From NCBI RefSeq assembly GCF_988243305.1, contig NZ_OZ547136.1: DNA of 64,000 bases; one strand, given 5' to 3'. The notes under the pieces are model-generated. The model searched no databases and was not told the origin of the DNA. It saw nothing but the letters and a program-made list of their open reading frames with translations. Positions 40,051-55,601 of the stretch are shown here, in pieces (within the stretch, counting starts at the first letter, position 1; every line of letters begins with the position of its first letter). The translations under genes were made by a program, and so were the position numbers.

Positions 40051-41849
40051 TAGTAGACATCTCGCTGATAACGGCGCTCTACGCGCAGCTCACTTAAAAA
40101 TTCATCCGCCGCTTCGGTGTCCATGCCACCAAATTCGGCAATCACTTCCAGAAGTGCCTGCTCAACATCTTTCGCCATGCGATTAGCGTCGCCGCAGACA
40201 TAAATGTGGGCACCGTCATTGATCCAGCGCCACAGCTCCGCGCCCTGTTCGCGCAGTTTGTCTTGTACATAAACTTTTTCTTTTTGGTCGCGCGACCAGG
40301 CAAGATCGATGCGGCTCAATACGCCTTCTTTCACGTAGCGCTGCCACTCCACCTGGTAGAGGAAATCTTCCGTAAAGTGCGGGTTGCCAAAGAACAACCA
40401 GTTTTTACCCGGCGCTTCGTCAGCGGCGCGCTGCTGCATAAAGGCGCGGAACGGCGCGATGCCGGTGCCTGGGCCAATCATAATCACCGGGGTTTCTGGG
40501 TTGGCTGGCAGGCGGAAGTTGTCGTTATGTTCGATAAATACGCGGACTTCGCCCTCTTCTTCCACGCGGTCCGCGAGGAAGCTGGAGGCACCACCGGCAC
40601 GGGCGCGGCCTTCCACGTCGTAACGCACCACACCAACGGTAACGTGCACTTCGTTCTCGACTTCCGCCTGCGAGGAGGCGATGGAATACAGGCGCGGGGT
40701 CAGCGGGCGCAACAGGTTAATCAGCGCTTCGGCATCCAGTTGCGCCGGAGAGAAACGCACCATGTCGACAATCGGCGTGGTCGCGGCGTAATGCTGTAAC
40801 TTCGCTTTATCGCCCACCAGCGGCAGCAGCGTTTCGCTGCGGGTAAGCGTGGCATAGTTCTCAACAATGTTGGCGGTGTTGACGGTCAGTTCGAAGTGCC
40901 ACTGTAGCGCTTCGTTCAGAGGCAACGTTTTGCCCTCGACGGTGACAGGTTCATCACCTTTCAGCCACAGCAGTTCGACAAGTTCTTTCACCAGTGCCGG
41001 ATCGTTCTGATACCAGACGCCCAGCGCGTCACCCGGCTGGTAACGCAGGCCCGAGTCACCTAAGTCAATTTCGATATGGCGAACGTCTTTTTCAGAGTTA
41101 CGCCCGGTAATTTTCTGGTTAACAGAGAGGCTCGCCACCAGCGGCGCGTCTTTGCTGTACGGGCTGGTGTGGATTTCATTTACCGCGCCAGTAGCGACGG
41201 ATTGCGAAGGTGCCGCGACAGGCGCACGCGATTTAAGCGCATCAACCACGCGGGCGCGCCACTCGATGGCAGCAGCCTGGTATTCAACGTCGGCATCGAC
41301 ACGGTCGAGCAGGCGTTCACCGCCCAGTTCCGCCAGCTTGCTGTCAAAATCTTTCCCGGACTGGCAGAAAAATTCATAAGAGCTATCGCCGAGGCTAAAC
41401 ACGGCAAATGCGGTGTTTTCCAGCTTCGGCGCTTTTTTGGAGAACAGGAACTTATGCAGCGCGACGGCTTCTTCCGGCGGTTCCCCTTCTCCTTGCGTTG
41501 ACGTCACCACGATAAGCAGTTTTTCGCTGGCGATTTGTTTGAATTTATAGTCGCCCGCGTTCACCAGCTTAACGTTCAGTTTTGCCGCCAATAAATCATC
41601 GCGTAACGCTTCAGCAACCCGGCGCGCATTGCCGGTTTGTGAAGCGGAGATAATAGTTATACCCGGCATTTCTGCGGCGGGCGCTGGCGTCGCTGCAAGC
41701 GCAGCTGGCTGCTGGTTGAGCACGCCCCAGAAATAGCCAGAAACCCAGGCAAGCTGGGTGGGAGTTAAATCGGTCGTGGCCGCCTGAAGGCGTGCCAGTT
41801 GCTCCGGGTTCAACGGAAGCAACGCGGAAGGTGGGACCTGTGTCGTCAT
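40050..41849 (-). CDS. cysJ: Sulfite reductase flavoprotein alpha subunit
   Basis: 599-aa [45 protein letters not shown]... Confidence 0.95.
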
Positions 41850-42164
41850 GCGTCGTTATGTTCCAGTAAGCAAAGCTGTTTCTGCGCCCTGTCAGCGCCC
41901 ATAAAACAGAAGAGAAGGTAAGGTTAACGGGGTGAACGGTGTGGATTAAAGACGGGATAGCGATAACTAATAACCAAATCGACTAACCTGTTTTAGCAAT
42001 AGTCTTTAACAACAAAATAGATTAACCAACCCAATGAAAAACAAATGAATTTAGCCAATCATTAAGATAAATCAGCGATTTTGCGCAACAAAGTCGTTTT
42101 AGATAATGCGAAAAAACAGCCTTTCCGGTACTCTACGGCGGTTTTATCGTCCTGTAGAGAAATT

Positions 42165-42530
42165 ATGATGTCCACCACGTTATTTAAAGATTTCACCTTC
42201 GAAGCCGCTCACCGCTTACCACACGTCCCGGAAGGACATAAATGTGGTCGCCTGCACGGGCATTCCTTTATGGTGCGACTGGAAATTACCGGGGAAGTCG
42301 ATCCGCATACGGGCTGGATTATCGATTTCGCTGAACTGAAAGCGGCGTTTAAGCCAACTTATGAGCGCCTCGATCACCATTATCTCAATGATATTCCAGG
42401 TCTGGAAAACCCAACCAGCGAAGTTTTAGCAAAATGGATTTGGGATCAGGTTAAACCCGTTGTGCCGCTGTTAAGTGCGGTGATGGTAAAAGAAACCTGT
42501 ACTGCAGGCTGTATCTATCGCGGCGAATGA
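42165..42530 (+). CDS. queD: 6-carboxy-5,6,7,8-tetrahydropterin synthase QueD
   Basis: ORF contains [35 protein letters not shown]...; start placed at the internal ATG. Confidence 0.9.
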
Positions 42531-42607
42531 TAAGAGTGTGTCGGCGGTCAATTTCCCTTAAGTAACGCTATGTTAGGGTGTTGTGTTCTGGATATCTGAG
42601 GCATGAC

Positions 42608-43879
42608 ATGGAAGACGACTGCGACATTATTATTATTGGTGCCGGTATTGCAGGCACCGCTTGCGCGTTACGCTGCGCGCGAGCGGGTTTATCCGTTTTG
42701 TTACTCGAACGCGCTGAAATCCCCGGCAGCAAAAATCTTTCCGGCGGGCGGTTATATACCCATGCACTCGCGGAACTCCTCCCGCAGTTTCACCTGACCG
42801 CGCCTCTTGAACGACGCATCACTCACGAAATCCTTTCCCTGTTAACGCCGGATGGCGCAACGACGTTTTCCAGCTTACAGCCCAGCGGTGAATCCTGGAG
42901 TGTATTACGTGCACGCTTCGATCCGTGGCTGGTTGCCGAAGCTGAAAAAGAAGGTGTCGAATGCATCCCTGGTGCGACGGTGGATGCGCTGTATGAAGAA
43001 AACGGCAGGGTGTGTGGTGTCATTTGTGGTGACGATATTCTCCGCGCCCGTTATGTGGTGCTGGCAGAAGGTGCCAACAGCGTCCTGGCTGAGCGTCACG
43101 GGTTAGTGACTCGTCCTGCTGGCGAAGCGATGGCGTTGGGGATCAAAGAAGTGCTGTCGCTGGAAACATCCGCTATTGAAGAACGTTTTCATCTGGAGAA
43201 TAACGAAGGCGCAGCGTTGCTGTTCAGCGGCGGGATCTGTGATGACTTACCCGGCGGCGCATTTCTTTATACTAATCAACAAACGCTCTCGTTAGGGATT
43301 GTTTGCCCGCTCTCTTCACTTACGCAAAGTCGTGTTCCGGCAAGCGAGCTGCTGGCTCGCTTTAAAACGCATCCGGCAGTGCGCCCGCTTATCAAAAACA
43401 CGGAATCACTGGAGTATGGTGCGCATCTGGTGCCAGAAGGTGGCTTACACAGTATGCCGATGCAATACGCCGGTAACGGCTGGCTGCTGGTGGGCGATGC
43501 GTTGCGCAGTTGCGTCAATACCGGAATTTCCGTGCGCGGCATGGATATGGCGCTAACTGGCGCGCAGGCGGCGGCACAAACGCTGATAAGCGCCTGCCAG
43601 CACCGCGAGCCGCAAAATCTGTTTGCGCTTTATCATCACAACGTCGAGCGCAGCCTGCTATGGGATGTTCTACAACGTTATCAGCATGTTCCGGCGCTTT
43701 TGCAACGCCCTGGATGGTACCGTGCGTGGCCTGCGTTAATGCAGGATATTTCCCGCGATTTATGGGATCAGGGTGATAAACCTGTTCCACCGCTGCGCCA
43801 GTTATTCTGGCGTCATTTACGTCGTCACGGCCTGTGGCATCTGGCGGGCGATGTTATCAGGAGTCTGCGATGTCTGTAG
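42608..43879 (+). CDS. ygcN: FAD-dependent oxidoreductase, FixC/ETF-QO-like
   Basis: ORF contains MEDDCDIIIIGAGIAGTACALRCARAGLSVLLLER (Rossmann GxGxxG); symbol assigned from K-12-like gene order. Confidence 0.8.
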   Translation: MEDDCDIIIIGAGIAGTACALRCARAGLSVLLLERAEIPGSKNLSGGRLYTHALAELLPQFHLTAPLERRITHEILSLLTPDGATTFSSLQPSGESWSVLRARFDPWLVAEAEKEGVECIPGATVDALYEENGRVCGVICGDDILRARYVVLAEGANSVLAERHGLVTRPAGEAMALGIKEVLSLETSAIEERFHLENNEGAALLFSGGICDDLPGGAFLYTNQQTLSLGIVCPLSSLTQSRVPASELLARFKTHPAVRPLIKNTESLEYGAHLVPEGGLHSMPMQYAGNGWLLVGDALRSCVNTGISVRGMDMALTGAQAAAQTLISACQHREPQNLFALYHHNVERSLLWDVLQRYQHVPALLQRPGWYRAWPALMQDISRDLWDQGDKPVPPLRQLFWRHLRRHGLWHLAGDVIRSLRCL

Positions 43880-44130
43880 CCCGTAATCTCTGGCGCGTTG
43901 CCGATGCGCCGCACATTGTTCCGGCTGACTCCGTTGAGCGTCAGACGGTACAACGGTTGATTAACGCTTGTCCGGCTGGTCTTTTTTCGCTCACACCGGA
44001 AGGTGACTTACGCGTTGATTATCGCGGCTGCCTGGAGTGTGGCACCTGCCGTTTGCTGTGCGACGAATCAACACTACAACAGTGGCGCTATCCGCCTTCC
44101 GGATTCGGCATCACCTACCGTTTTGGATAA
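43870..44130 (+). CDS. ygcO: Ferredoxin-like protein, FixX-like
   Basis: Small ORF MSVARNLWRVADAPHIVPADSVERQTVQRLINACPAGLFSL... with Cys cluster CLECGTCRLLC. Confidence 0.75.
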   Translation: MSVARNLWRVADAPHIVPADSVERQTVQRLINACPAGLFSLTPEGDLRVDYRGCLECGTCRLLCDESTLQQWRYPPSGFGITYRFG

Positions 44131-44146
44131 ATAATAAGGATAATTT

Positions 44147-44722
44147 ATGCCCCTCTTACACCTGCTCCGCCAGAATCCGGTGATTGCTGCCGTTAAAGAT
44201 AATGCCAGCCTGCAACTGGCAATCGACTCTGAATGCCAGTTTATTTCCGTGTTGTACGGCAATATCTGCACCATCAGTAATATCGTTAAAAAGATTAAGA
44301 ACGCCGGAAAATATGCTTTTATTCATGTTGATTTGCTGGAAGGCGCGTCAAATAAAGAAGTGGTGATTCAGTTTTTGAAACTGGTGACTGAGGCGGACGG
44401 CATTATCAGTACCAAAGCCTCAATGCTGAAAGCAGCAAGAGCGGAAGGTTTTTTCTGTATTCATCGCCTGTTTATTGTTGATTCAATTTCGTTTCACAAC
44501 ATTGATAAGCAAGTTGCGCAATCGAATCCGGATTGTATTGAGATCCTGCCTGGCTGTATGCCCAAAGTGCTGGGCTGGGTGACGGAGAAAATCCGCCAAC
44601 CGCTGATTGCTGGCGGGCTGGTGTGCGATGAAGAAGATGCGCGTAATGCGATTAACGCAGGTGTCGTGGCGCTTTCCACCACGAATACCGGGGTCTGGAC
44701 GCTAGCGAAAAAATTGCTTTGA
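44147..44722 (+). CDS. ygcP: GlpP-like glycerol-3-phosphate responsive antiterminator family protein
   Basis: 191-aa ORF MPLLHLLRQNPVIAAVKDNASLQLAIDSECQFISVLYGNICT... Confidence 0.75.
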   Translation: MPLLHLLRQNPVIAAVKDNASLQLAIDSECQFISVLYGNICTISNIVKKIKNAGKYAFIHVDLLEGASNKEVVIQFLKLVTEADGIISTKASMLKAARAEGFFCIHRLFIVDSISFHNIDKQVAQSNPDCIEILPGCMPKVLGWVTEKIRQPLIAGGLVCDEEDARNAINAGVVALSTTNTGVWTLAKKLL

Positions 44723-44756
44723 CGGGATAATCGTAACGAATTGAATTTGTGTGATT

Positions 44757-44868
44757 TGTAGGCTGCACGCCACATCCGACATTCAGCGTCTGATGCGACG
44801 CTTGACGCGTCTTATCAGGCCTACAAGTCCCCAGGCCAGAACCGTAGGCAGGATCATCCGGCTGCACG
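44757..44868. repeat. BIME/REP cluster between ygcP and ygcQ
   Basis: GTAGGCTGCACGCC...GCGTCTGATGCGACGCTTGACGCGTCTTATCAGGCCTACAAG...GTAGGCAGGATCATCCGGCTGCACG: several REP-type palindromes in alternating orientation. Confidence 0.7.
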
Positions 44869-45729
44869 TTATTGGCAATCTGCGTGAATGTTTGTCACCA
44901 GTGCCTCCAGCACCACTTTCCAGTCATCAACCACGCCAACATCTGCCTGTGAAAATACCGCTGCACTGGCGTCATGATTAATCGCCACCACAAACTTGCT
45001 ATTGCGTACGCCCGCCATTAACGCTGCTGCGCCGGAAGCGCCAACAACAATACACACCTCAGGTGCCAGCAGATGTCCAGAAATACCAATCACTTTTTCG
45101 GCATCAACGCCACCGTTCATCACTCGTGCCCGACTGTAGCCCACTTCGGCTCCCAGCTTTTCTGCCAGCATAGCGATTTCCTGGTTATCTGCCTCTCCGC
45201 CCTGCCCCACCACCAGCACCCGTCTGGCCTCAGCTAATGGGTCGCGGGTAACATTTTTCAGGTTTTCTATGCTAACCAGCCAGTCGGGAAGCGCACCTGG
45301 GACAATTTTCAGTTGCTGCATACCAGAGGGCAACGTGGCGTTTTTCGCTGCTCCCGCCTGACGCGCCAGGGAAAGGCATAGCGGGCGTTTTTCTGTTTGC
45401 AGCGTCGCCGTTAGCGCATTTCCCCAGTGGGATTTGCGCACGCTTACGGTTGAAATATCTAACGAAGTCACCTGGCAGATGCTTGCACCATGTAAACGCC
45501 AGGCCAGCCGGGTCGACAGTTCATCACCAAACGTTCCCGGCGGAAAGAGAACAACGTCCGCTGGCGTTCGCTGCCACTGTTCCACCAGCGCATCCAGCAC
45601 CTGTTCCGCCACTACGGGCTGAGGTTCAATCTGCCAGTGTGCCAGGGTACAACCGCTGAAATCCTGTTCTGCCAGCCAGCTCGCTATTGCGGCATTCTCC
45701 TGATTTATTGTCACAATTGCGAGATTCAT
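44869..45729 (-). CDS. ygcQ: Electron transfer flavoprotein alpha-subunit-like (FixB-like)
   Basis: ORF contains MNLAIVTINQENAAIASWLAEQDFSGCTLAHWQIEPQ... Confidence 0.8.
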   Translation of the reverse strand: MNLAIVTINQENAAIASWLAEQDFSGCTLAHWQIEPQPVVAEQVLDALVEQWQRTPADVVLFPPGTFGDELSTRLAWRLHGASICQVTSLDISTVSVRKSHWGNALTATLQTEKRPLCLSLARQAGAAKNATLPSGMQQLKIVPGALPDWLVSIENLKNVTRDPLAEARRVLVVGQGGEADNQEIAMLAEKLGAEVGYSRARVMNGGVDAEKVIGISGHLLAPEVCIVVGASGAAALMAGVRNSKFVVAINHDASAAVFSQADVGVVDDWKVVLEALVTNIHADCQ

Positions 45730-46505
45730 GGCTGCATCCTTTGGCGTAAATAGTCCTGCCATAGCTTTTGCGCTTTTTCTGCTACCGTTTGCCCATCAAT
45801 CAGCGTCGCTCCGCGTTGTTGCTCTGCTCTTGCCAGTTGCCGACACTGCATCGCTGGCGATTCGGCAGCAACAGTTTTACGGATAATTTCTGCTTTCCCC
45901 GCCGCCATTCGCTGACGCATTCCCGGTACTGGCAAGGCCACTTCACCGCACTGACGCACGGCAATCACCGCAGGCAAGCGAACCCGGCAACAGCGCAGCC
46001 CGTTTTCAGTACGCTGTTCAAGGGTGATAAACGGCGCGTCGAGAGTAAAACGCTCCACCTGGGTGAAGCAGGGCCAGCCCAGCATTTCCGCCAGCAAAAA
46101 TGGCGTTTGCCCATTCTGCCCTTCGCTGCTTTGGCAGCCGGTAATTATCAGATCCAGCGGATTCTGGTACTGCCATTCGGCAATATGGCGAGCGACAAAT
46201 TCCGGCGCAAAGCGCAGATCTGCCGCCGTCTCCAGCAATACAGCTTCCTCAAACCCATGAGCCATGAGATAGCGCAGCCAGTGCAACGCCCGTTCATCCC
46301 CCATGCTCAACGCGGTTAAAGACATCGACGTACCGTTTTTTCTCTGCGTCAACAGCAGCGCGGCGGCAGCCTGTTCATCAGCACCGAGTAAACTTCGCAG
46401 AAGCGAAACATCCGGTCCGCTATTACCCTGAGCCGCCGCCTGCCACTCTTTTTCCGCCAGCATTCCGGCATCCGGTTCGGCTTTAAACGCTAACAGAATG
46501 TTCAT
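45726..46505 (-). CDS. ygcR: Electron transfer flavoprotein beta-subunit-like (FixA-like)
   Basis: ORF contains MNILLAFKAEPDAGMLAEKEWQAAAQGNSGPDVSLL... Confidence 0.8.
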   Translation of the reverse strand: MNILLAFKAEPDAGMLAEKEWQAAAQGNSGPDVSLLRSLLGADEQAAAALLLTQRKNGTSMSLTALSMGDERALHWLRYLMAHGFEEAVLLETAADLRFAPEFVARHIAEWQYQNPLDLIITGCQSSEGQNGQTPFLLAEMLGWPCFTQVERFTLDAPFITLEQRTENGLRCCRVRLPAVIAVRQCGEVALPVPGMRQRMAAGKAEIIRKTVAAESPAMQCRQLARAEQQRGATLIDGQTVAEKAQKLWQDYLRQRMQP

Positions 46506-47820
46506 TCGCACCTCCAACATTTCCCGCCGCCACCAGCGGGAGTGCTTTGGTTTCTGGTGCCCATAGCCAGGTCACGACAAAACCAACCAACAACACAGCC
46601 GCCAGGAGCAATAAGGTGACTTGCATTCCCCACTGCGCCAGCACCCACGGCAGCAGGCCAGTACTTACTGCCGCGCCCAACCGACTCATGGCGGTGGCAA
46701 AACCGACGCCCAGCGAGCGAATGTCAGTAGGAAAACTTTCCGCAGGCAAAATGCCCACCAGATTACTGACTGCCGAAATGGTGGTGCTGAAGAGAACAAA
46801 AAGCAGCAGCGTTAATGAACTGCCGGAAGGCAAACAAGCCATCACTACCAGCGTTGCCGCCAGCAGCAAAAAACTTCCCAGCAAAAATTTGCGATGTGCC
46901 AGCAGGTGCGTCAGAACTAATCCCAGCAGCGCACCCACAATTAACAACGCATTAAGCATCAGGCTAGCGGTCAACGCATCTTCCAGACCAATAGTCTGGG
47001 CGATAGTTGGCAGCCAGGTATAAATCACAAACCATGGGATTACGAGGCAGACAAAGAAGACGCTGTTAAACGCCGTGCGCCGCCAGTAGCGCGAAGAGAA
47101 CAAGGTTTTGATGTGTTTATGGGTCGCCGTTGCCACTTCATCGCCCAGTAAAACATGGGGACCAAAATAGCGATGCACGATAGCGTGAGCTTCTGCAAAA
47201 CGCCCCTGGCGCAGTAGCCAGCGTGGCGATTCTGGCGTTCCCCAGCGTAATAACGTAATCAACAATGCGGGCAGAGCTGCCGATGCCAGCAGCCAGCGCC
47301 AGGCCTCCGGGCTTTCGCTAATAAAGTGATATCCGGCAATACTTGCCAGCACATAGCCTACGGTCCACACCACGCTGAATGCGCCCAGCAAAATACCGCG
47401 ATGGCGGCGCGGAGAAAATTCAGCCAGCAAGGTGTGGCCTACTGAGTAATCGCCTCCCAGACCAATGCCGATCAAAATGCGCAGTCCAATAAGATGCTCT
47501 GGCGTGGTGGCAAAAAATTGTAAGAACGAAGCGAGCGTAATCAGCAAAAAGCTGAAGGTGAAGATTTTTTGCCGACCAATATGGTCGGAGATCCACCCCA
47601 AAACCAGGCTACCGATAAACAGGCCAAGTAGCGCCGAGCCGCCAATCATTCCCGCCATAAACGGCGTCAGTTGCATGGCGGGTGTAAGCTGAATAATGGC
47701 GTAACCAATGACGCCGAGAACATAACCGTCGGTCAGGTGCGCCCCGAAAGTGAGCGCAGCAATTCGACAGTGAAAACGGTTAAGCGGTAAATCATCCATT
47801 CGCACCGGTGAAGTGTTCAT
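46483..47820 (-). CDS. ygcS: MFS transporter
   Basis: ORF contains MNTSPVRMDDLPLNRFHCRIAALTFGAHLTDGYVLG...; 12-TM hydrophobic pattern. Confidence 0.8.
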   Translation of the reverse strand: MNTSPVRMDDLPLNRFHCRIAALTFGAHLTDGYVLGVIGYAIIQLTPAMQLTPFMAGMIGGSALLGLFIGSLVLGWISDHIGRQKIFTFSFLLITLASFLQFFATTPEHLIGLRILIGIGLGGDYSVGHTLLAEFSPRRHRGILLGAFSVVWTVGYVLASIAGYHFISESPEAWRWLLASAALPALLITLLRWGTPESPRWLLRQGRFAEAHAIVHRYFGPHVLLGDEVATATHKHIKTLFSSRYWRRTAFNSVFFVCLVIPWFVIYTWLPTIAQTIGLEDALTASLMLNALLIVGALLGLVLTHLLAHRKFLLGSFLLLAATLVVMACLPSGSSLTLLLFVLFSTTISAVSNLVGILPAESFPTDIRSLGVGFATAMSRLGAAVSTGLLPWVLAQWGMQVTLLLLAAVLLVGFVVTWLWAPETKALPLVAAGNVGGANEHSVSV

Positions 47821-47913
47821 CTTTACCCCTTCATTGTCCGGTAATAAGAACGGCTTCTCGCCTGAGAAGCCGAAAAGGCAACGCTCCGTCATCGCGGAAC
47901 GCTGCCTGACACA

Positions 47914-49368
47914 TTATTTTTCAATCGGATAGATAGTACCCGTATTCATAATGCCGTTAGGATCGAACTGCTTTTTCAGCCCTTCCAGCAACGCCCACGC
48001 GCTGCCGTGTTCCAGCTTGCTCCAGTGAACGCGATGTTTACCAATACCGTGGTGGTGCACCATCGAACCGCCGAGGCGAATGGTTTCTTCGCAGATGATT
48101 TTGTTGAGCGGATTGTGGTACTTGTCGATTTCCTCTTCCGGCTTACAGTCAACAACGTTGTAGTCGTAAACGAAGTACATGTTGGTGCCGTTCTGGTAGC
48201 TGTGAGAGGAGTGACCGCCCAGCATGGTGATGTCGTCGGCGTGCGGGAACTCGGTACGAATACGGTTAATAACGCTTTCGTAGATTTCGTGAATGCAGCT
48301 CCAGCAGCCGGACACTTCGGTGGTAAAGCCCATGTTGCCGGTTTTGAGGATCTGCACACGTTCGGCAGCTACTTTATCCGGTCCCCAGTTCAGGTTGTTA
48401 AACCAGGTTTCGATCAGCTTGCTGTCCACTCGCTGGCATTGCGGGTAACGTGCCACGATTTCAGCAATCCCTTCGCCCGTCGCCTTCGCAATGCGAGGGT
48501 TACCTTCAGCCATAAAGATCAGCACGCATTTTCCGTCAGCAAAATGGGTGAAGTGTTGGGTGCCATCTTCAGCGTCATACAAACGAGCGATCGACGGACG
48601 ATACCCTTCCACCATGATTTCACGCAGGATGTTGAAGCCGGTTTTCATGTCTTCCAGGATATAGCCGTAGAAGAGGTTGTTTTCCGGGATGAACTTAAAG
48701 ATTTTCACAGTTACTTCAGTGATATAGCACAATGCACCTTCGTTGCCGATGATGATGTGACGAATGTCCGGGCCTGCCGCGCGGCGTGGTACGTTTTTAA
48801 TGCGTGTTACGGTGCCATCAGCCAATACTGCTTCCAGACCAACGACCATATCTTCGATTGCGCCGTAGAGTGTGGAGAACTGCCCGATACTGCGGGTTGC
48901 TACCAGGCCGCCCATCTGCGCCAGCGGCTTTGACTGCGGAGAATGCCCCGTGGTGTAACCTTTTTCACGCAACGCGTTTTCCAGCACTTCCAGCGGAACT
49001 CCGCATTGCGCCGTGGCCTGCATATTCTCAATATCAATATTAATGATTTGATTCATGGCAGAGCCGTCGAGCACCACCGAGTTTTCCACAACGGTTTCCA
49101 GCCCACCTTCGGTAGCGGAAGCACCGGTACGCGGCACACCGTTAATTTTGTGCGCATTCATAAAATTCAGCACACGGGATACTTGTTCTGTGGAACCGAG
49201 TTTTACGACCGCTGCCGGAATCGGCAAAGTATAAATGCCATGAATATCCGGAAATTTGCGAAAACGGTCAATACTGTTCTTCTTTAATACTGTTTCATCG
49301 GTAATTACGCGATCTGCACCAACAATTTCCTTTAGCTGGTCGACAATCGCTGCGCGAGATAAAGACAT
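47914..49368 (-). CDS. ygcU: FAD-linked oxidase (alkyldihydroxyacetonephosphate synthase / D-lactate dehydrogenase-like)
   Basis: 484-aa ORF MSLSRAAIVDQLKEIVGADRVITDETVLKKNSIDRFRKFPDIHG... Confidence 0.8.
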   Translation of the reverse strand: MSLSRAAIVDQLKEIVGADRVITDETVLKKNSIDRFRKFPDIHGIYTLPIPAAVVKLGSTEQVSRVLNFMNAHKINGVPRTGASATEGGLETVVENSVVLDGSAMNQIINIDIENMQATAQCGVPLEVLENALREKGYTTGHSPQSKPLAQMGGLVATRSIGQFSTLYGAIEDMVVGLEAVLADGTVTRIKNVPRRAAGPDIRHIIIGNEGALCYITEVTVKIFKFIPENNLFYGYILEDMKTGFNILREIMVEGYRPSIARLYDAEDGTQHFTHFADGKCVLIFMAEGNPRIAKATGEGIAEIVARYPQCQRVDSKLIETWFNNLNWGPDKVAAERVQILKTGNMGFTTEVSGCWSCIHEIYESVINRIRTEFPHADDITMLGGHSSHSYQNGTNMYFVYDYNVVDCKPEEEIDKYHNPLNKIICEETIRLGGSMVHHHGIGKHRVHWSKLEHGSAWALLEGLKKQFDPNGIMNTGTIYPIEK

Positions 49369-49437
49369 AGTAATTCCTTCCTGATAATAAAAATGGAATA
49401 ATCATTAATAAGAGAAAACAGAAACCACCGTTATGGA

Positions 49438-50223
49438 TTAGCGCACTAAATAACCGCCATCAACCACTAATAAATGTCCGTTGACATAATTCGATGCCGG
49501 ACTTGCGAGGAATACGGCTGCGCCCATTAAATCCTGAGTATCGCCCCAACGGTTTGCCGGAATATGATCAAGAACGCGCTGGTTAGTTTCTGGATTACTA
49601 CGGGTCGCCAGAGTGATATCGGTAGCGTAATATCCCGGAGCAATACCATTTACCTGAATATTATATTGACCTAGTTCATCACAATAAGCTTTGGTGAACC
49701 CGGCAAGAGCATGTTTAGTGGCAGAATATGCAGGTGACCATTGTCCACCTAAGTAAGAGAATAATGAACAGATATTAATGATTTTACCGCTTTTCTGCGG
49801 GATCATAATTTTTGCAGCTTCATAGCTTAACTCGAATGCGGCGGTCAGGTTCACATCAATCATCGGGTCCCAGTCGGCACGACCGAAGTCCAGCACCTTA
49901 TTCAGCTTACAAATACCGGCATTGTTAATCAGAATATCGACGGTACCGAAACGTTCGCAACAGGCGGCGATTATCTTCTGCGGCGCGCCTTCTGCGGTGA
50001 TATCCACCTGCATGAAGTCCACCTCAACACCCTGTTTTTCAATCATTTCCTTTGTTTCGCCGTTATCTTTAACGAAGCTTGGAATAAAGATATTTGCGCC
50101 TGCTTTGGCCAGCGCCATGGCAAATGCCTGGCCTAAACCGCTATTCCCGCCGGTAACAATTGCGGTTTTACCTTTCAGGGAGAAAAAATCCATTGAGAAC
50201 GCATTGAGAGATTCGATTGACAT
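49438..50223 (-). CDS. ygcW: Short-chain dehydrogenase/reductase (SDR)
   Basis: ORF contains MSIESLNAFSMDFFSLKGKTAIVTGGNSGLGQAFA (TGxxxGxG) and a YxxxK active-site pattern. Confidence 0.8.
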   Translation of the reverse strand: MSIESLNAFSMDFFSLKGKTAIVTGGNSGLGQAFAMALAKAGANIFIPSFVKDNGETKEMIEKQGVEVDFMQVDITAEGAPQKIIAACCERFGTVDILINNAGICKLNKVLDFGRADWDPMIDVNLTAAFELSYEAAKIMIPQKSGKIINICSLFSYLGGQWSPAYSATKHALAGFTKAYCDELGQYNIQVNGIAPGYYATDITLATRSNPETNQRVLDHIPANRWGDTQDLMGAAVFLASPASNYVNGHLLVVDGGYLVR

Positions 50224-50541
50224 AGTTAGCTCCAATTTCCGTAAGGCAAAAAAAAAGAAAGGTAACTTCCCCCGCGAGAGGGAAGTTACCTTTCTCATTA
50301 TCTCTGGTAACTGGAGATAATTTTTATCATAAGGGCATAATCGCTAATGTGATCGTAATCACAGTGTGATATTCGAATTGTCAAATAATTTTAAAAAGCA
50401 GAAGCGTGATTACTCTCACACAACACCACTACTTTCCATGTTATTTCTTATTGCAATTACTAGAGACCTGAGAAAAGTAATCCACCTGAAAGGGCGGCTT
50501 ACTTTTCTCTTTTTTTTGTCTATTACAAATGGGAATACGAT

Positions 50542-51819
50542 ATGCAACACAACTCATATCGCCGTTGGATAACCCTCGCGATAATTAGTTTTAGCGGCGG
50601 CGTTAGTTTCGACCTGGCTTATTTACGTTATATTTATCAAATTCCCATGGCGAAATTTATGGGATTCAGCAATACCGAGATAGGTTTAATAATGAGTACC
50701 TTTGGTATTGCGGCTATTATTCTTTATGCCCCCAGCGGCGTTATTGCCGATAAATTTTCACACCGCAAAATGATTACTTCCGCGATGATCATTACCGGAT
50801 TACTGGGTCTGTTAATGGCAACATATCCACCGCTGTGGGTAATGCTCTGTATTCAGGTCGCCTTTGCGATAACGACGATTTTAATGCTGTGGTCGGTGTC
50901 GATTAAAGCCGCCTCGTTGCTGGGCGATCATAGCGAGCAAGGGAAAATTATGGGCTGGATGGAAGGGCTGCGCGGCGTCGGTGTAATGTCGCTGGCGGTG
51001 TTTACCATGTGGGTCTTTTCTCGCTTTGCACCGGATGACAGCGCCAGCCTGAAAACGGTCATTATTATCTATAGTGTGGTTTACATTCTGCTGGGCATTT
51101 TGTGTTGGTTTTTTGTTAGCGATAACAACAACCTGCGCAATACCAATAACGAAGAAAAACAGTCATTCCAGCTTAGCGACATCCTGGCTGTTTTGCGCAT
51201 CAGCACCACCTGGTATTGCAGCATGGTGATTTTTGGTGTCTTCACCATCTACGCCATTCTGAGTTACTCCACCAACTATCTGACCGAAATGTACGGCATG
51301 TCGCTGGTGGCGGCGAGCTACATGGGGATTGTGATCAACAAAATCTTCCGCGCACTGTGCGGCCCACTTGGTGGCATTATCACCACCTACAGCAAAGTGA
51401 AATCCCCTACCCGCGTGATCCAAATCCTTTCCGTACTCGGCTTGCTGGCGTTAACTGCCCTGCTCGTCACGAACTCTAACCCGCAATCGGTCGCGATGGG
51501 GATTGGCCTGATTTTACTGCTGGGATTCACCTGTTACGCCTCACGCGGGCTGTACTGGGCCTGCCCTGGCGAAGCGAGAACACCGTCTTACATTATGGGC
51601 ACCACGGTAGGTATTTGTTCGGTGATTGGATTCCTGCCGGATGTCTTCGTTTACCCGATTATCGGCTACTGGCAAGACACCCTGCCCGCTGCAGAAGCCT
51701 ACCGCAATATGTGGCTGATGGGCATGGCGGCGCTTGCCATGGTGATCGTCTTTACCTTTTTGCTGTTCCAAAAAATTCGTACTGCTGATAGCGCCCCTGC
51801 TATGGCTAGCAGCAAGTAA
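50542..51819 (+). CDS. yqcE: MFS transporter
   Basis: 425-aa hydrophobic ORF MQHNSYRRWITLAIISFSGGVSFDLAYLRYIYQIPMAKFMGF... Confidence 0.8.
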   Translation: MQHNSYRRWITLAIISFSGGVSFDLAYLRYIYQIPMAKFMGFSNTEIGLIMSTFGIAAIILYAPSGVIADKFSHRKMITSAMIITGLLGLLMATYPPLWVMLCIQVAFAITTILMLWSVSIKAASLLGDHSEQGKIMGWMEGLRGVGVMSLAVFTMWVFSRFAPDDSASLKTVIIIYSVVYILLGILCWFFVSDNNNLRNTNNEEKQSFQLSDILAVLRISTTWYCSMVIFGVFTIYAILSYSTNYLTEMYGMSLVAASYMGIVINKIFRALCGPLGGIITTYSKVKSPTRVIQILSVLGLLALTALLVTNSNPQSVAMGIGLILLLGFTCYASRGLYWACPGEARTPSYIMGTTVGICSVIGFLPDVFVYPIIGYWQDTLPAAEAYRNMWLMGMAALAMVIVFTFLLFQKIRTADSAPAMASSK

Positions 51820-51845
51820 GTCCAGAAAATTACAGGAGAAAAATC

Positions 51846-53324
51846 ATGTCGAAAAAATACATCATAGGGATTGATGGCGGAAGTCAGAGCACAAAAGTGG
51901 TGATGTATGATCTGGAAGGTAATGTGGTTTGCGAAGGCAAAGGCTTATTGCAGCCGATGCACACGCCAGATGCCGATACCGCAGAACATCCTGACGACGA
52001 TTTATGGGCATCATTATGTTTTGCCGGTCACGATTTGATGAGTCAGTTTGCCGGGAATAAAGAAGATATTGTCGGTATTGGTCTGGGATCCATCCGTTGC
52101 TGCCGTGCGTTATTGAAAGCCGATGGCACGCCAGCTGCGCCGTTGATTAGCTGGCAGGATGCACGCGTTACACGCCCTTACGAACATACGAATCCTGACG
52201 TGGCATATGTCACCTCTTTTTCAGGTTATCTGACGCATCGCTTAACCGGCGAGTTTAAAGACAATATCGCCAACTATTTTGGTCAGTGGCCGGTGGATTA
52301 TAAGACCTGGGCATGGAGTGAAGATGCCGCAGTCATGGAGAAGTTTAATATCCCCCGTCATATGCTGTTTGATGTGCAAATGCCGGGCACTGTTCTTGGG
52401 CATATCACTCCTCAAGCCGCGCTGGCGACACATTTCCCAGCTGGGCTGCCGGTTGTTTGTACCACCAGTGATAAACCGGTAGAAGCACTGGGAGCCGGGT
52501 TACTGGATGATGAAACTGCGGTAATTTCTCTTGGCACTTACATCGCGTTGATGATGAACGGCAAAGCACTGCCGAAAGATCCGGTGGCGTACTGGCCGAT
52601 TATGTCTTCTATTCCGCAAACATTGCTGTATGAAGGTTACGGTATTCGCAAAGGCATGTGGACGGTGAGCTGGCTACGCGACATGTTAGGCGAGTCGTTA
52701 ATTCAGGATGCCAAAGCACAGGATCTTTCACCGGAAGATTTGCTCAACAAAAAAGCGTCTTGTGTGCCGCCAGGCTGTAATGGTCTGATGACGGTGCTGG
52801 ACTGGCTGACCAATCCGTGGGAACCGTACAAACGCGGGATTATGATTGGCTTTGATTCCAGCATGGATTACGCATGGATATATCGTTCGATACTGGAAAG
52901 CGTGGCGCTGACGCTGAAGAACAATTACGACAATATGTGTAATGAAATGAATCACTTTGCAAAGCATGTGATCATTACTGGCGGCGGTTCGAACAGCGAT
53001 CTGTTTATGCAGATTTTTGCCGACGTGTTCAACCTTCCGGCACGCCGTAACGCCATTAATGGTTGTGCAAGCCTGGGGGCAGCGATTAATACGGCGGTAG
53101 GTCTGGGGCTATACCCGGATTACGCAACGGCTGTCGACAAAATGGTTCGCGTGAAAGATATCTTTATGCCTGTTGAGAACAATGCCAAACGCTACGACGC
53201 GATGAATAAAGGCATTTTCAAGGAGTTAACCAAACATACTGATGTAATCCTGAAAAAATCGTATGAAGTGATGCATGGGGAATTGGGGAATGCGGATTCG
53301 ATCCAGAGCTGGTCGAATGCGTAA
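51846..53324 (+). CDS. ygcE: FGGY-family carbohydrate kinase
   Basis: 492-aa ORF MSKKYIIGIDGGSQSTKVVMYDLEGNVVCEGKG... Confidence 0.85.
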   Translation: MSKKYIIGIDGGSQSTKVVMYDLEGNVVCEGKGLLQPMHTPDADTAEHPDDDLWASLCFAGHDLMSQFAGNKEDIVGIGLGSIRCCRALLKADGTPAAPLISWQDARVTRPYEHTNPDVAYVTSFSGYLTHRLTGEFKDNIANYFGQWPVDYKTWAWSEDAAVMEKFNIPRHMLFDVQMPGTVLGHITPQAALATHFPAGLPVVCTTSDKPVEALGAGLLDDETAVISLGTYIALMMNGKALPKDPVAYWPIMSSIPQTLLYEGYGIRKGMWTVSWLRDMLGESLIQDAKAQDLSPEDLLNKKASCVPPGCNGLMTVLDWLTNPWEPYKRGIMIGFDSSMDYAWIYRSILESVALTLKNNYDNMCNEMNHFAKHVIITGGGSNSDLFMQIFADVFNLPARRNAINGCASLGAAINTAVGLGLYPDYATAVDKMVRVKDIFMPVENNAKRYDAMNKGIFKELTKHTDVILKKSYEVMHGELGNADSIQSWSNA

Positions 53325-53370
53325 GTGAGGAAGGCCGGGCGGGAAACTGCCCGGCCTGAACATACCTGAA

Positions 53371-53508
53371 TGGTTATCCCCGCTGACGTGGGGAACATAA
53401 GTTCGACAACTTAAAAAATGATAACAAGTCCGGTTTATCCCCGCTGATGCAGGGAACATAATAAAAACTTTAACTAGTTCGGTTTATCCCTGTTGTTACA
53501 AGGAATAT
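53371..53508 (-). CRISPR. Degenerate CRISPR remnant (three decayed repeat-like units)
   Basis: TGGTTATCCCCGCTGACGTGGGGAACAT / CGGTTTATCCCCGCTGATGCAGGGAACAT / CGGTTTATCCCTGTTGTTACAAGGAATAT separated by 32-nt and about 20-nt spacers. Confidence 0.7.
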
Positions 53509-53962
53509 TAACTACACTCGATGTCCTTAGAATAAAAGACAACGCAAACCGTACTTTATCAATTTTCATTTAAAGTATGAACTGGATATCTTTATTCATA
53601 AGAACTATTCATCAACAGCCTATAGAGACGGTTATGTAAAACCACTCATTAGCCTCAAAACAAAGACAAATTTCCAGATTTATTACTTAATCAATGAATA
53701 ATAAGCTTAAAAAACAATCTATTATCCTAAAGAAAAAATTAACAAACATCAATTCAATATTAAAAAAATAATATATGATAATTTCTTAATGATTTAAGTA
53801 TCATACAACTAACACTTTAATTAAATTTGATTTTTTGTATCGATAATTGTGAACTTATCATATATGGAGAGCTATTTTGAACATGAGGTGTTACGTGGAT
53901 ATATTGCTTAATACGAGTACTGCTAATATAAAAACTTGAGAAAGAGATAACGGGTTATATGG

Positions 53963-54418
53963 TGGTTTATCCCCGCTGGCGCGGGGAACTCCGTCAGTGT
54001 GCCAGTTGCTACTGTTTCCCATACGGTTTATCCCCGCTGACGCGGGGAACTCATCAGTGATATCCAACATTGCGGAGCTAAACGCGGTTTATCCCCGCTG
54101 GCGCGGGGAACTCTATAAATGTGCCATATACGGCGTTTGTTGCCTCGGTTTATCCCCGCTGGCGCGGGGAACTCCTCCCGGTGATGCGGGTTATGTGGCC
54201 TGCCGCCGGTTTATCCCCGCTGGCGCGGGGAACTCTTCGCCGCGTCAACAATTCGGACCTGTAAATCCGGTTTATCCCCGCTGGCGCGGGGAACTCATCC
54301 GGCGAACGCGCTACAGAGTACAGTTCACCGGTTTATCCCCGCTGGCGCGGGGAACTCGGAAACCGCCCCGGCGGTGGTTAGCTGTTTGCCGGTTTATCCC
54401 CGCTGGCGCGGGGAACTC
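53963..54418 (-). CRISPR. Second type I-E CRISPR array: 8 repeats, 7 spacers
   Basis: Same 29-bp repeat at 61-bp period (53963, 54024, 54085, 54146, 54207, 54268, 54329, 54390); AT-rich leader-like sequence beginning TCTCTAAA at the high-coordinate end, as in array 1. Confidence 0.93.
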
Positions 54419-54750
54419 TCTAAACATAACCTATTATTAATTAATAATTTTTTAAGCCAGTCACAATCTACCAACTTTATAGTATCACACAAACAACACA
54501 TCCATTATGTTAAAGAGCACTTAATCCATTGATTGAAAAGCTAAATATTTAAAGTAATCCTATACCGACTAAAATCTACCAAACTTTACCGCAATAATTT
54601 TCACTCCAGCGAAAAATTAATGCCGCAGAATTTGTAGAGAATGCTAATGATTAGCCCTGGATGGGTAAAATGGAGGAGTTTTCAGAGGCGACAAACAATA
54701 TAAATGAGTAGAAATCTTTACAGGTTCCACCCATTTATAACGCTTATAAA
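54419..54750 (-). promoter_or_regulatory. Leader of the second CRISPR array
   Basis: AT-rich non-coding region adjoining the first repeat on the transcription-proximal side; starts with the same TCTCTAAA junction seen at the array-1 leader. Confidence 0.55.
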
Positions 54751-54757
54751 TGTTTAA

Positions 54758-55429
54758 TCAGGCAATATTTAGATATTTATGTGTTTGCATCGACAAACGC
54801 CAATTACGAGCAATGCAGGTTTCAATGCACAATCGTGTGGCATCATCCTTTTGGCTAATCGGCTGCAGTGCAATGACTCGCGGTTTATCATCGGTCAGCG
54901 TCGCCAAAAGTTCATCCAGTGCTTCAATATCACGTACGCGTCCCACTGGATGCTTGATTTCGTTGGCTCGCTCCAGTGCCTGTGACAACACTTCATAGCC
55001 GCCGCGCATGTTCAGCTTTGGCGATACGGTAACCCAGGTATTCGGTGTGCAGCGTACCTCATGAGTACCACTGGTTTCGATCTGGCAGCTAAAACCGTTC
55101 TTTTCGAGCAGGTCAGTCAGTGGCAGCAAATCATGAATGCAAGGCTCACCACCCGTAATCACCACATGCCGCGCGGTGTATCCCTGGCGACCAATGACAG
55201 CCAGCAAGTCTTCACTGCTCGCCGCCCCCCACTTATCACTCTCTTTGGTCTTCGCCAGAATGCTGAAAAGGGAGACTTCCCGATCCTCAAGCTTTTCCCA
55301 GGTGTGTTTGGTGTCGCACCAGGCACAGCCAACCGGGCATCCCTGTAAACGAATAAAAATGGCGGGGACGCCGGTAAAGTAACCCTCACCTTGCAGGGTC
55401 TGGAACATCTCGTTAATCGGGTACTGCAT
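54758..55429 (-). CDS. queE: 7-carboxy-7-deazaguanine synthase QueE (radical SAM)
   Basis: 223-aa ORF MQYPINEMFQTLQGEGYFTGVPAIFIRLQGCPVGCAWCDTKHTW... Confidence 0.93.
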   Translation of the reverse strand: MQYPINEMFQTLQGEGYFTGVPAIFIRLQGCPVGCAWCDTKHTWEKLEDREVSLFSILAKTKESDKWGAASSEDLLAVIGRQGYTARHVVITGGEPCIHDLLPLTDLLEKNGFSCQIETSGTHEVRCTPNTWVTVSPKLNMRGGYEVLSQALERANEIKHPVGRVRDIEALDELLATLTDDKPRVIALQPISQKDDATRLCIETCIARNWRLSMQTHKYLNIA

Positions 55430-55601
55430 AGCATTCTCTGTGAAGTGGATAATTGTTAATTATTGCAGATCCTGCCACAACAATCATGTCTTATTAACAT
55501 TCTGTTACAGGCAGTTTTAAGGCAAAAAGTGGATTAGATCATAAAGAATAAAATGAAGCAGAGTATTATGTTTTAAGGAATTAATTAAAAGGGATTTAAA
55601 C

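Follow-up and report, generated by a model that had tools for sequence, protein, structure and literature searches.

The ten contiguous genes of the ygcN-ygcE cluster of Escherichia coli still lack a function in K-12. Here we have analysed the cluster within a window of 64,000 nucleotides (contig NZ_OZ547136.1, RefSeq assembly GCF_988243305.1) and, for comparison, across bacterial phyla. The cluster is a real, intact E. coli catabolic regulon made up of three transcription units: ygcNOP (42608-44722, + strand), ygcWUSRQ (50223-44869, - strand) and yqcE-ygcE (50542-53324, + strand). We propose, with a probability of roughly 0.5 for the scheme as a whole, that these genes encode a pathway controlled by the cAMP receptor protein (CRP) and by antitermination, in which a C1-substituted glycerol-like compound would be converted to a substituted dihydroxyacetone phosphate (DHAP) on which the flavoenzyme YgcU would then act.

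The cluster already counts among the 'known unknowns' of the K-12 'y-ome', and its parts are without exception members of known families. New here are a leader RNA that is tied to the antiterminator protein YgcP across phyla; a core composed of YgcW, YgcE, YgcU and usually YgcP (W-E-U(-P)), around which other modules are swapped; the resemblance of the YgcU active site to that of alkyl-DHAP synthase (AGPS); and a gene link to the uptake and demethylation of quaternary amines. Together they narrow what had been a vague sugar-like guess to C1-substituted glycerols.

Two leader RNAs between ygcW and yqcE

The divergent region between ygcW and yqcE is 318 bp long and holds two CRP sites and two copies of a leader RNA (Table 1). 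CRP site 1 is the sole perfect TGTGA-N6-TCACA match in the window, and site 2 differs from the consensus at one position. Transcription starts were placed where each transcript must begin in order to include its leader; on this basis we infer that site 1 lies approximately 41.5 bp upstream of the ygcW start and that site 2 is placed likewise for yqcE. A CRP site for ygcW/yqcE was predicted in earlier work (PMC1794230), and yqcE-ygcE has been listed as Crp-activated (PMC8085971).

A terminator scan identified a perfect 19-bp hairpin with a U-run in the ygcW leader, whose tract ends some 25 nt before the ygcW ATG; the predicted fold of this leader has a dG of -42.4 kcal/mol and a z-score of -6.7. 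Leaders from three phyla were aligned (alignment A2, 24 sequences) and served as the basis for a covariance model, R1. Within the window R1 finds exactly two copies, directly upstream of ygcW (76.3 bits, E 4e-14) and yqcE (67.5 bits, E 4e-12). An Rfam scan of positions 41000-56000 by E-value threshold returned only two weak, chance-level matches, neither of them at the leaders.

The alignment supports two mutually exclusive helices. The terminator helix is 89% paired, and 8 of its 15 pairs show compensatory double changes. The antiterminator helix, formed by the up-box GUUACY and the start of the terminator 5' arm (RGUAAC), excludes the terminator helix and is 87.5% paired, against at most 51% out of register, with compensatory changes at five of its eight pairs. 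Across both helices, the out-of-register control reached at most 63%. The up-box and arm of the yqcE leader, AUUAC/GUAAU, are a compensatory variant of GUUAC/GUAAC that also occurs in Sporomusa, and Saccharopolyspora carries GGUCGC/GCGACC at the same place.

When the 5' hairpin is folded in isolation, it is predicted to form in 23 of the 24 leaders and to enclose a conserved AGAGAY-N-GAGAAA loop. Its stability is low (-1.4 to -8.8 kcal/mol) compared with that of the terminators (-15 to -36 kcal/mol), and a protein would therefore be needed to stabilise the antiterminator. Judged from these predicted folds, the pairing of a weak 5' hairpin with a strong terminator is the signature of a protein-stabilised antiterminator. 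Each leader combines an intrinsic terminator with a covarying antiterminator hairpin, and so provides the promoter-proximal terminator that GlpP-type control requires. The initial annotation of this region correctly named the family of the antiterminator protein, but missed the two leader RNA switches that explain its role.

The leader RNA accompanies YgcP across phyla

Residues 12-184 of YgcP match the full 173-position G3P_antiterm profile (PF04309) with an E-value of 1.4e-62. To place this protein and the leaders in context we used a comparative set of 80 genome loci, examined by tblastn and clustering of open reading frames (ORFs) and covering Enterobacterales, Vibrionaceae, Desulfobacterales, SAR324, Negativicutes, Clostridia, Bacilli and Actinomycetes. 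The leader RNA is present in all 54 loci with a YgcP ORF, and YgcP is absent from all 20 loci that lack the RNA. Nine loci have the RNA and no YgcP ORF; these are mostly truncated contigs, or high-GC loci where ORF calling failed. This co-occurrence spans Proteobacteria, Firmicutes and Actinobacteria, with leaders found in front of the YgcW homologues of other Enterobacterales, Photobacterium, Halobacillus, Virgibacillus, Thalassobacillus, Geosporobacter, Dethiosulfatibacter, Sporomusa and Saccharopolyspora.

Every enterobacterial locus that extends far enough to include both leader positions contains two R1 matches. In Firmicutes, extra copies precede genes for betaine/choline/carnitine transporters (BCCT), an ABC permease gene and an MttB gene (in locus L073 the RNA switch directly precedes an MttB operon), and also occur between the kinase gene and ygcU. 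This last arrangement, in which a further leader sits inside the operon, is seen in some Clostridia (L063 9844-9916, L064 9822-9917, L068 8709-8802) and implies a second antitermination checkpoint.

In E. coli itself, the ygcW leader was found, unannotated, in 5063 genomes, where the median number of matching places is two per genome; the second of these is presumably the yqcE leader. In 4185 E. coli genomes the leaders show an identity of 99% or more. An exact-motif scan of metagenomes for further members of the regulon gave 73 usable matches, 71 of which precede YgcW or YqcE; it revealed no extra members, the remaining two being chance matches in GC-rich coding DNA. The leader element appears to be a protein-dependent RNA switch, supported by covariation, that lies outside Rfam and is common to Gram-negative and Gram-positive bacteria.

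A three-enzyme core with variable modules

The SDR (short-chain dehydrogenase/reductase) YgcW, the FGGY kinase YgcE and YgcU occur together in nearly all 80 loci, usually with YgcP. YgcW accompanies YgcU in 76 of 81 loci, at 63-97% identity. YgcU is 65-99% identical across phyla, and the E. coli protein is 65-73% identical to its counterparts in Firmicutes, Desulfobacterota, SAR324 and Actinomycetes. These three enzymes are the core of the system, while the electron-transfer genes and the transporters are variable modules.

Genes for the beta and alpha subunits of an electron-transfer flavoprotein (ETF) directly follow ygcU in 59 loci, among them most Enterobacterales, Desulfobacterales, Sporomusa, Clostridia and Photobacterium. 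No ETF genes lie beside the cluster in Halobacillus, Virgibacillus, Thalassobacillus, Saccharopolyspora, Erwinia, Pantoea, Izhakiella and Serratia proteamaculans. YgcN and YgcO are confined to Enterobacterales loci; anaerobes instead have a second flavoprotein, which is GlcD-like (FADox2 hereafter), and at times a second ETF pair with a ferredoxin (Fer4) domain in the alpha subunit. The initial annotation had presented an ETF/FixCX set as part of the system, and the families are as it stated, but the set is a variable accessory module and not a member of the core. Among the Enterobacterales (L006-L049) the electron-transfer proteins are less conserved (YgcQ 39-63%, YgcR 33-74% and YgcN 49-77% identity) than the core (YgcU 77-94%, YgcW 74-97%, YgcP 67-97%). 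This much faster divergence suggests that the electron-transfer module may be under relaxed or different constraints.

The transporters also vary with taxon. The major facilitator superfamily (MFS) proteins YgcS and YqcE serve the Enterobacterales loci, with yqcE adjoining ygcE in all of them and also in Photobacterium. BCCT genes, often two, are found in Firmicutes, SAR324 and Photobacterium, and several loci have an OpuC-like ABC system with an OpuAC binding protein. In six loci, MttB-superfamily methyltransferases lie beside the cluster, their scores falling below the cut-off for the pyrrolysine-containing trimethylamine enzyme. An Alkalihalobacillus locus has genes for a zinc-dependent alcohol dehydrogenase, an aldehyde dehydrogenase and an aspartase/fumarase-family lyase beside BCCT-W-E-U. 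The linkage of the core to BCCT/OpuC transporters and MttB outside the Enterobacterales, often under the same RNA, points away from the ordinary polyol or sugar-like substrate that the initial annotation had suggested. This linkage suggests that in many bacteria the substituent on the substrate may carry a quaternary amine.

The most compact version of the system is found in halophilic Bacilli, which have only P | W-E-U-transporter, and whose flanks hold only unrelated genes (a DNA glycosylase, methyltransferases and domains of unknown function). Since these minimal modules have unrelated flanks, three enzymes suffice to reach central metabolism.

Two members of the comparative set stand apart taxonomically. 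L005, a metagenome-assembled genome labelled as Planctomycetota, has a YgcU 100% identical to that of the window and shows YgcU alone, and L028 (Chryseobacterium sp. 18061) has one that is 88% identical, together with enterobacterial-type neighbours and leaders. Both are most likely contaminant or mis-binned contigs.

YgcU carries AGPS-type active-site residues

YgcU consists of FAD_binding_4 and FAD-oxidase_C domains, and belongs to the vanillyl-alcohol oxidase (VAO) type of flavoenzyme. We compared it with all PDB sequences, both as a single sequence and as a profile. By single sequence the best relative was AGPS (E 1.6e-39), followed by glycolate oxidase (7e-26) and LctD (3e-22). The profile search gave the same order: AGPS 1.4e-55, glycolate oxidase 5.8e-36 and LctD 1e-25.

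Guinea-pig AGPS residues R419, Y578 and H615-617 align with R262, Y398 and H438-440 of YgcU, all of which are invariant in our YgcU alignment (A1); the position of Y578 is fixed by the entry for the Y578F mutant, 4bca. We take Arg419, Tyr578 and His615-617 (guinea-pig numbering) to be the catalytic residues of AGPS. They act on C1 of a DHAP ester through an adduct at flavin N5, and the reaction is redox-neutral overall.

The histidine motif separates YgcU from its GlcD-like relatives. HHHG(I/V)G is found in 79 of 81 YgcU sequences, and the GlcD/LctD-type EHG(V/I)G motif is absent from YgcU, although LctD itself was not aligned residue by residue. The FADox2 paralogues have a central EHG, as EHG(V/I)GK, in 10 of 14 cases and HHHG in none of the 14, and have no counterparts of R262 and Y398; compared with the PDB, they gave no match at 1e-15. 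As YgcU has AGPS-type residues and not EHG, net oxidation by this enzyme is not certain.

At 484 residues YgcU is shorter than AGPS (584-658 residues), and the alignments begin only at AGPS residue ~137 in Dictyostelium and ~180 in guinea pig. The N-terminal extension of AGPS, which contributes to the tunnel for the fatty chain, is absent from YgcU, and the neighbouring transporters serve soluble compounds. On this comparison of sequences, YgcU is best described as AGPS-like and not as an AGPS orthologue.

Kinase, dehydrogenase, transporters and electron-transfer proteins

YgcE has the Pfam domains FGGY_N and FGGY_C, and the closest PDB entry is LsrK, followed by GlpK. Its NCBIfam scores (XylB 143 against a cut-off of 380 bits, LsrK 141 against 528, GlpK 102 against 590) do not reach equivalog level for any of the FGGY kinases GlpK, XylB, LsrK, AraB, FucK, RhaB and GntK. 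Aligned with E. coli GlpK, YgcE keeps the catalytic D10 and D245 and the glycerol-contacting R83 and W103. At other GlpK sites it differs, with E84 replaced by Cys or Phe, Q246 by Lys and F270 by Ala or Gly, and with a deletion around Tyr135; these changes are the same in all lineages. The kinases themselves fall into two FGGY lineages: E. coli YgcE shares 54-58% identity with the kinases of Firmicutes but only 43-50% with their counterparts in Serratia, Erwinia, Pantoea, Budvicia and Photobacterium, a contrast seen, for example, between L033-L049 and L008-L032. Two lineages within an otherwise syntenic cluster point to either ancient paralogy or gene replacement.

YgcW comes nearest to KduD and to 2-deoxy-D-gluconate 3-dehydrogenases (PDB matches at 2e-58). 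It scores 350 bits with NF005390 (cut-off 369) and 275 bits with TIGR01832 (cut-off 339), below the level that would identify it as KduD, and neither kduI nor kdgK lies nearby. KduD-like SDRs oxidise a secondary alcohol that adjoins a CH2OH group.

YgcS matches Pfam Sugar_tr and MFS_1, and its NCBIfam matches are to aromatic-acid/H+, sugar-porter and organic-cation types, all below cut-off; YqcE matches MFS_1 and weakly resembles the ACS/D-galactonate family. Records disagree on where ygcS starts, placing it at 47892 (469 residues) in several RefSeq strains and 72 nt further inward, at 47820 (445 residues), in K-12. Between these two starts is a GC-rich hairpin of 9 bp (47872-47851), accompanied by a weak T-run, which could be an internal attenuator or an RNA-stabilising element.

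YgcN scores 384 bits with NF007450 and 368 bits with the FixC model NF007542, both below cut-off, and matches Pfam ETFQO_UQ-bd at 30.6 bits against a cut-off of 27.7. YgcO scores 84 bits with the FixX model NF011993 (cut-off 166) and has a weak Fer4_9 match. By these profile scores the two proteins are members of the FixC and FixX families, at a level short of orthology. YgcQ has the ETF_alpha (PF00766) and ETF (PF01012) domains, and YgcR the ETF domain (PF01012). In the PDB, YgcQ matches bifurcating and non-bifurcating ETFs about equally (~1e-22), and the best matches of YgcR are the ETF beta subunits of Paracoccus and human (1e-10 to 1e-11), so that it is slightly nearer to the non-bifurcating ETFs.

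A proposed pathway for C1-substituted glycerols

Our scheme builds on what was observed, namely the families of the genes, covarying leader RNAs that co-occur with YgcP, the conserved core, and AGPS-type residues in YgcU; which ligand and substrate are involved, in what order the steps proceed and which way electrons flow are inferred. Two back-to-back CRP-dependent promoters would fire into leaders that terminate transcription by default. YgcP, loaded with a phosphorylated intermediate of the pathway, would bind a stem-loop at the 5' end of each leader. Its stem, 7-8 bp long, shares the terminator's 5' arm, and its loop is the conserved AGAGAY..GAGAAA. Binding would thereby block the terminator and allow read-through into ygcWUSRQ and yqcE-ygcE.

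A small C1-substituted glycerol-like compound would be imported by YgcS and/or YqcE. YgcW would oxidise its secondary alcohol and YgcE would phosphorylate its free primary alcohol, in either order, to give a 1-substituted dihydroxyacetone phosphate. C1 of this DHAP analogue would then be the site of YgcU action, where the substituent would be either displaced or removed by oxidation, yielding DHAP or a close triose phosphate. Electrons from the YgcU flavin would pass to the ETF (YgcRQ), from there to YgcN/YgcO, and so to the quinone pool; in aerobes without ETF genes, O2 probably replaces this route. Unusual chemistry would be needed because ether, ammonium and sulfonium bonds cannot be hydrolysed. 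The scheme fits the AGPS-type active site, the three-enzyme minimal modules and the descent of the regulator from a sensor of glycerol-3-phosphate (G3P).

Candidate substrates are glyceryl ethers, the head groups of betaine lipids, and related onium or sulfonate diols. Three other compounds were considered and appear less parsimonious: glycerophosphocholine is already handled by phosphodiesterases; 2,3-dihydroxypropane-1-sulfonate (DHPS) is anionic, a mismatch with BCCT; and carnitine has no primary hydroxyl for an FGGY kinase. If the AGPS-like step truly removes an ether- or onium-linked group from the DHAP skeleton, it would be a new biochemical cleavage of such bonds, and also a new sink for abundant algal and host-derived compounds.

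A bolder version of the scheme, which we think improbable, is that W-E-U, as a catabolic pathway not described before, runs the logic of ether-lipid biosynthesis backwards, that the substrate in marine, halophilic and anaerobic bacteria is a glycerol derivative bearing a quaternary amine, such as the deacylated head group of a betaine lipid, and that the new, cross-phylum GlpP-family RNA class senses a substituted glycerol phosphate. One might speculate that the compound is a 1-O- or 1-onium-substituted glycerol such as glyceryl-trimethylhomoserine, a deacylated betaine lipid. The betaine released could, again speculatively, be handled by MttB-type methyltransferases, or by the alcohol dehydrogenase, aldehyde dehydrogenase and aspartase-family lyase encoded in Alkalihalobacillus, where these neighbours could conceivably take homoserine betaine to fumarate and trimethylamine.

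Several observations weigh against the proposed scheme. AGPS chemistry is redox-neutral, so displacement alone leaves the linkage of ygcU to the ETF beta and alpha genes unexplained; net oxidative cleavage, or re-oxidation ('maintenance') of the flavin, is a possible answer. An AlphaFold model of YgcU, built from a 12-sequence alignment, reached a pLDDT of 66, with the active-site segments below 50, and is too poor to describe the pocket. The substitutions at the YgcE substrate site would fit a glycerol-like moiety with room for a substituent, but this pattern is not decisive. The ETF-less loci of Erwinia, Pantoea and SAR324 carry a homologue of the formaldehyde-activating enzyme Fae (TIGR03126, above cut-off) together with an aldo-keto reductase that resembles L-glyceraldehyde-3-phosphate and methylglyoxal reductases (YghZ/YdjG-like); both genes are co-oriented with a transporter gene (L034, L039, L046, L048, L049, L050), and the scheme does not explain them. 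Lastly, an nhmmer search with the leader profile from alignment A2 gave no match in the B. subtilis glpD 5' untranslated region. As the glpD leader goes undetected, what ties the ygc system to canonical GlpP action is the homology of the proteins and the architecture common to the leaders; the ygc and glp leaders are probably of analogous design and served by homologous proteins, without forming one RNA family.

Alternative explanations

The initial annotation proposed the import, phosphorylation and flavin-based oxidation of a polyol or sugar-like compound. Its catabolic reading is supported by the CRP sites and by the published Crp activation of yqcE-ygcE, whereas polyol or sugar oxidation proves too generic for an AGPS-like YgcU. 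A plain route of this kind, for example for a tetritol or pentitol, would have YgcW form a ketose, YgcE phosphorylate it, and YgcU act as a GlpD/EryB-like dehydrogenase passing electrons through the ETF and YgcN/O to quinone. The combination of SDR, FGGY kinase and flavoprotein does resemble the erythritol/threitol and glycerol routes, as known from these families; ETF genes directly follow ygcU in most loci, CRP control is typical of sugar operons, and the antiterminator comes from a family that senses glycerol-3-phosphate. We nevertheless find this route doubtful. The active-site residues of YgcU are AGPS-type and not dehydrogenase-type, no equivalog was reached for either the kinase or the SDR, and the minimal three-enzyme modules lack an isomerase or aldolase through which a C4-C6 product could enter central metabolism. 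BCCT/OpuC transporters and MttB, which lie beside the core outside the Enterobacterales and often behind the same RNA, do not handle neutral polyols. Substrates of a different chemical kind are considered in a further explanation, in which YgcU and YgcRQ form a D-lactate, glycolate or 2-hydroxyacid dehydrogenase complex like LctBCD and the other genes are loosely associated. A FAD_binding_4 enzyme paired with an ETF recalls LctD with LctBC, LctD and glycolate oxidase are detectable relatives of YgcU, and some loci have a second ETF pair whose alpha subunit, like LctC, has a Fer4 domain. Given that LctD (1e-25) and GlcD (6e-36) fall far below AGPS (1e-55), that YgcU has HHHG where the co-encoded GlcD-like FADox2 has EHG, and that W, E, U and P travel together across phyla, which is not loose association, we consider such a complex very improbable.

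The direction of electron flow could also be the reverse of that in our scheme, with ETF/FixCX feeding electrons to YgcU for a reductive cleavage alpha to the ketone, so that the compound would serve as an electron sink and not only as a carbon source. FixABCX, together with CaiA, has been proposed to work reductively in carnitine respiration. YgcRQNO are paralogues of FixABCX, the ETF genes occur in anaerobes and facultative anaerobes and are absent from strict aerobes, and the closest E. coli analogy, cai-fix, likewise concerns a quaternary amine and a BCCT transporter (as judged from knowledge of these families). Aerobic Bacilli and Actinomycetes, however, keep W-E-U without any ETF, and an ATP-consuming kinase under CRP activation suits carbon catabolism better; a reductive role seems distinctly unlikely. 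We also give very little weight to the idea that the cluster is cryptic or decaying and has no current function in E. coli. The literature search found no phenotype or substrate, and about 7% of complete genomes lack the cluster, but both the window and K-12 retain ten intact ORFs despite their divergence, with YgcP and YgcU scarcely altered, and the regulatory RNA and CRP sites are preserved, the leaders almost unchanged in more than four thousand genomes.

Comparison with known systems

The proposed scheme of control is closest to that of B. subtilis GlpP, which acts by G3P-dependent antitermination on the glpD, glpFK and glpTQ leaders; in both cases a PF04309 protein accompanies a catabolic operon that follows a promoter-proximal terminator. 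Compared by eye, the glpD leader (PMC9604022, Table S4) has a similar upstream box that is complementary to the beginning of the terminator 5' arm, GGUC...GAGAUGAGGAGA GACC, and a GAGA-rich stretch between the box and the 5' arm of a long terminator. In both systems the presumed inducer is the product of the kinase. The genes under control differ, as the ygc cluster contains none of glpFK, glpD and glpTQ. YgcE is distant from GlpK, scoring 102 bits where the cut-off is 590, and the ygc ligand is unlikely to be plain G3P. The ygc version operates in Gram-negative bacteria in combination with CRP, and Rfam has no family for either leader.

AGPS (EC 2.5.1.26) is the nearest solved relative of YgcU, sharing the VAO-fold domains and the Arg/Tyr/His-His-His residues. 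Mammals have an SDR that converts alkyl-DHAP to alkyl-G3P and back, and a kinase that acts on alkylglycerol. YgcU differs from AGPS in being shorter, soluble, catabolic, CRP-controlled and operon-linked to an ETF, and no lipid genes lie nearby.

The caiTABCDE-fixABCX system resembles the cluster in dedicating a FixA/B/C/X-type set to one catabolic cluster, and relatives of the ygc core in other phyla use transporters of the BCCT family, to which CaiT also belongs. The ygc cluster has no genes for a CoA-transferase, an acyl-CoA dehydrogenase or a hydratase, having instead a kinase, an SDR and a VAO-type flavoenzyme, and is controlled by RNA antitermination where cai is controlled by CaiF. In LctBCD of Acetobacterium woodii (7qh2), the gene for a VAO-family flavoenzyme likewise adjoins those for ETF beta and alpha, and the anaerobe loci of our set add FADox2 and at times an ETF alpha with a Fer4 domain. 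YgcU is much closer to AGPS and has no EHG, and E. coli has FixC/FixX in place of a ferredoxin-domain ETF. Finally, EryA/EryB, EltD/LerK and GlpK/GlpD, from what is known of these families, offer the combination of alcohol oxidation, FGGY phosphorylation and a flavin dehydrogenase linked to the respiratory chain. The ygc cluster differs from these in having neither isomerases nor a dehydrogenase of the GlpD/EryB type (DAO family), and the transporters of its relatives point to quaternary amines.

Gene content and integrity of the cluster

Gene coordinates (Table 1) were checked against the ORF map, the RefSeq annotation of near-identical E. coli chromosomes and K-12 MG1655, and families were assigned by Pfam and NCBIfam profile searches. 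The gene inventory of the initial annotation was confirmed, its ORF coordinates agreeing to the base and the profiles supporting each family that it named, as was its statement that the genes are present in K-12, where the MG1655 annotation has all ten ORFs intact. None of the ten proteins reaches an NCBIfam equivalog cut-off, the nearest miss being YgcW with the KduD model (350 of 369 bits). The cluster is flanked by cysJ and queD on one side and by queE on the other.

Of 5426 complete E. coli genomes, 5061 (~93%) contain the cluster at a query coverage of at least 80%. None of the ten ORFs is disrupted in either the window or K-12 despite a nucleotide divergence of 3.7% (96.3% identity over the cluster); between the two, YgcP is 100% identical and YgcU agrees at 482 of 484 residues. 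The product names given to the genes in RefSeq (2026) and K-12 are all generic or 'putative', and a full-text literature search found no paper giving a substrate or pathway for the cluster, only CRP or SELEX listings and unrelated papers. That no substrate is assigned, as the initial annotation had supposed, is consistent with both.

When positions 42000-55600 are compared with K-12, identity falls from 96.3% over the cluster to 90.5% on the CRISPR/queE side, and only 5 of 5431 matching records reach 99% identity to the window. With so few near-identical records, the window appears to come from an uncommon E. coli lineage, or else the region is recombinant.

Table 1. Genes, CRP sites and leader RNAs of the ygcN-ygcE cluster, with positions in the window
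Feature	Coordinates	Strand	Description
ygcN	42608..43879	+	FixC/ETF-QO-like FAD flavoprotein, 423 aa
ygcO	43870..44130	+	FixX-like ferredoxin, 86 aa
ygcP	44147..44722	+	GlpP-family (PF04309) antiterminator protein, 191 aa
ygcQ	44869..45729	-	Divergent ETF alpha subunit, 286 aa
ygcR	45726..46505	-	Divergent ETF beta subunit, 259 aa
ygcS	46483..47892	-	MFS transporter; longest ORF 469 aa
ygcU	47914..49368	-	AGPS-like VAO-family flavoenzyme, 484 aa
ygcW	49438..50223	-	KduD/gluconate-5-dehydrogenase-like SDR, 261 aa
ygcW leader RNA	50242..50320	-	Up-box GUUACC 50311-50306, purine-rich loop, 19-bp terminator hairpin 50296-50255, U-tract
CRP site 1	50348..50363		TGTGATCGTAATCACA; perfect match to TGTGA-N6-TCACA
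CRP site 2	50405..50420		CGTGATTACTCTCACA; one mismatch to consensus
yqcE leader RNA	50447..50522	+	Up-box AUUAC 50456-50460, terminator hairpin 50470-50509, U8 tract
yqcE	50542..51819	+	MFS transporter, 425 aa
ygcE	51846..53324	+	FGGY kinase, 492 aa

Neighbouring elements

The 1.4-kb gap between ygcE and queE contains a type I-E CRISPR array (53374-53510 and 53964-54420) with eight repeats of GGTTTATCCCCGCTGGCGCGGGGAACTC at 61-bp spacing. Three degenerate repeats lie upstream, and the flanking DNA is AT-rich (22-33% GC). The array is annotated in other E. coli records, and nothing is listed at this place in the K-12 RefSeq table; we take it to be the known ygcE-ygcF CRISPR2 locus. An ORF of 147 codons at 53997-54440 has no Pfam match and is an artefact of the array. 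In the convergent gap between ygcP and ygcQ, positions 44749-44821 give a weak match to the Rfam family naRNA4, an RNA derived from repetitive extragenic palindromic (REP) sequences (26 bits against a gathering threshold of 59.5), and this stretch is probably a REP-type element.

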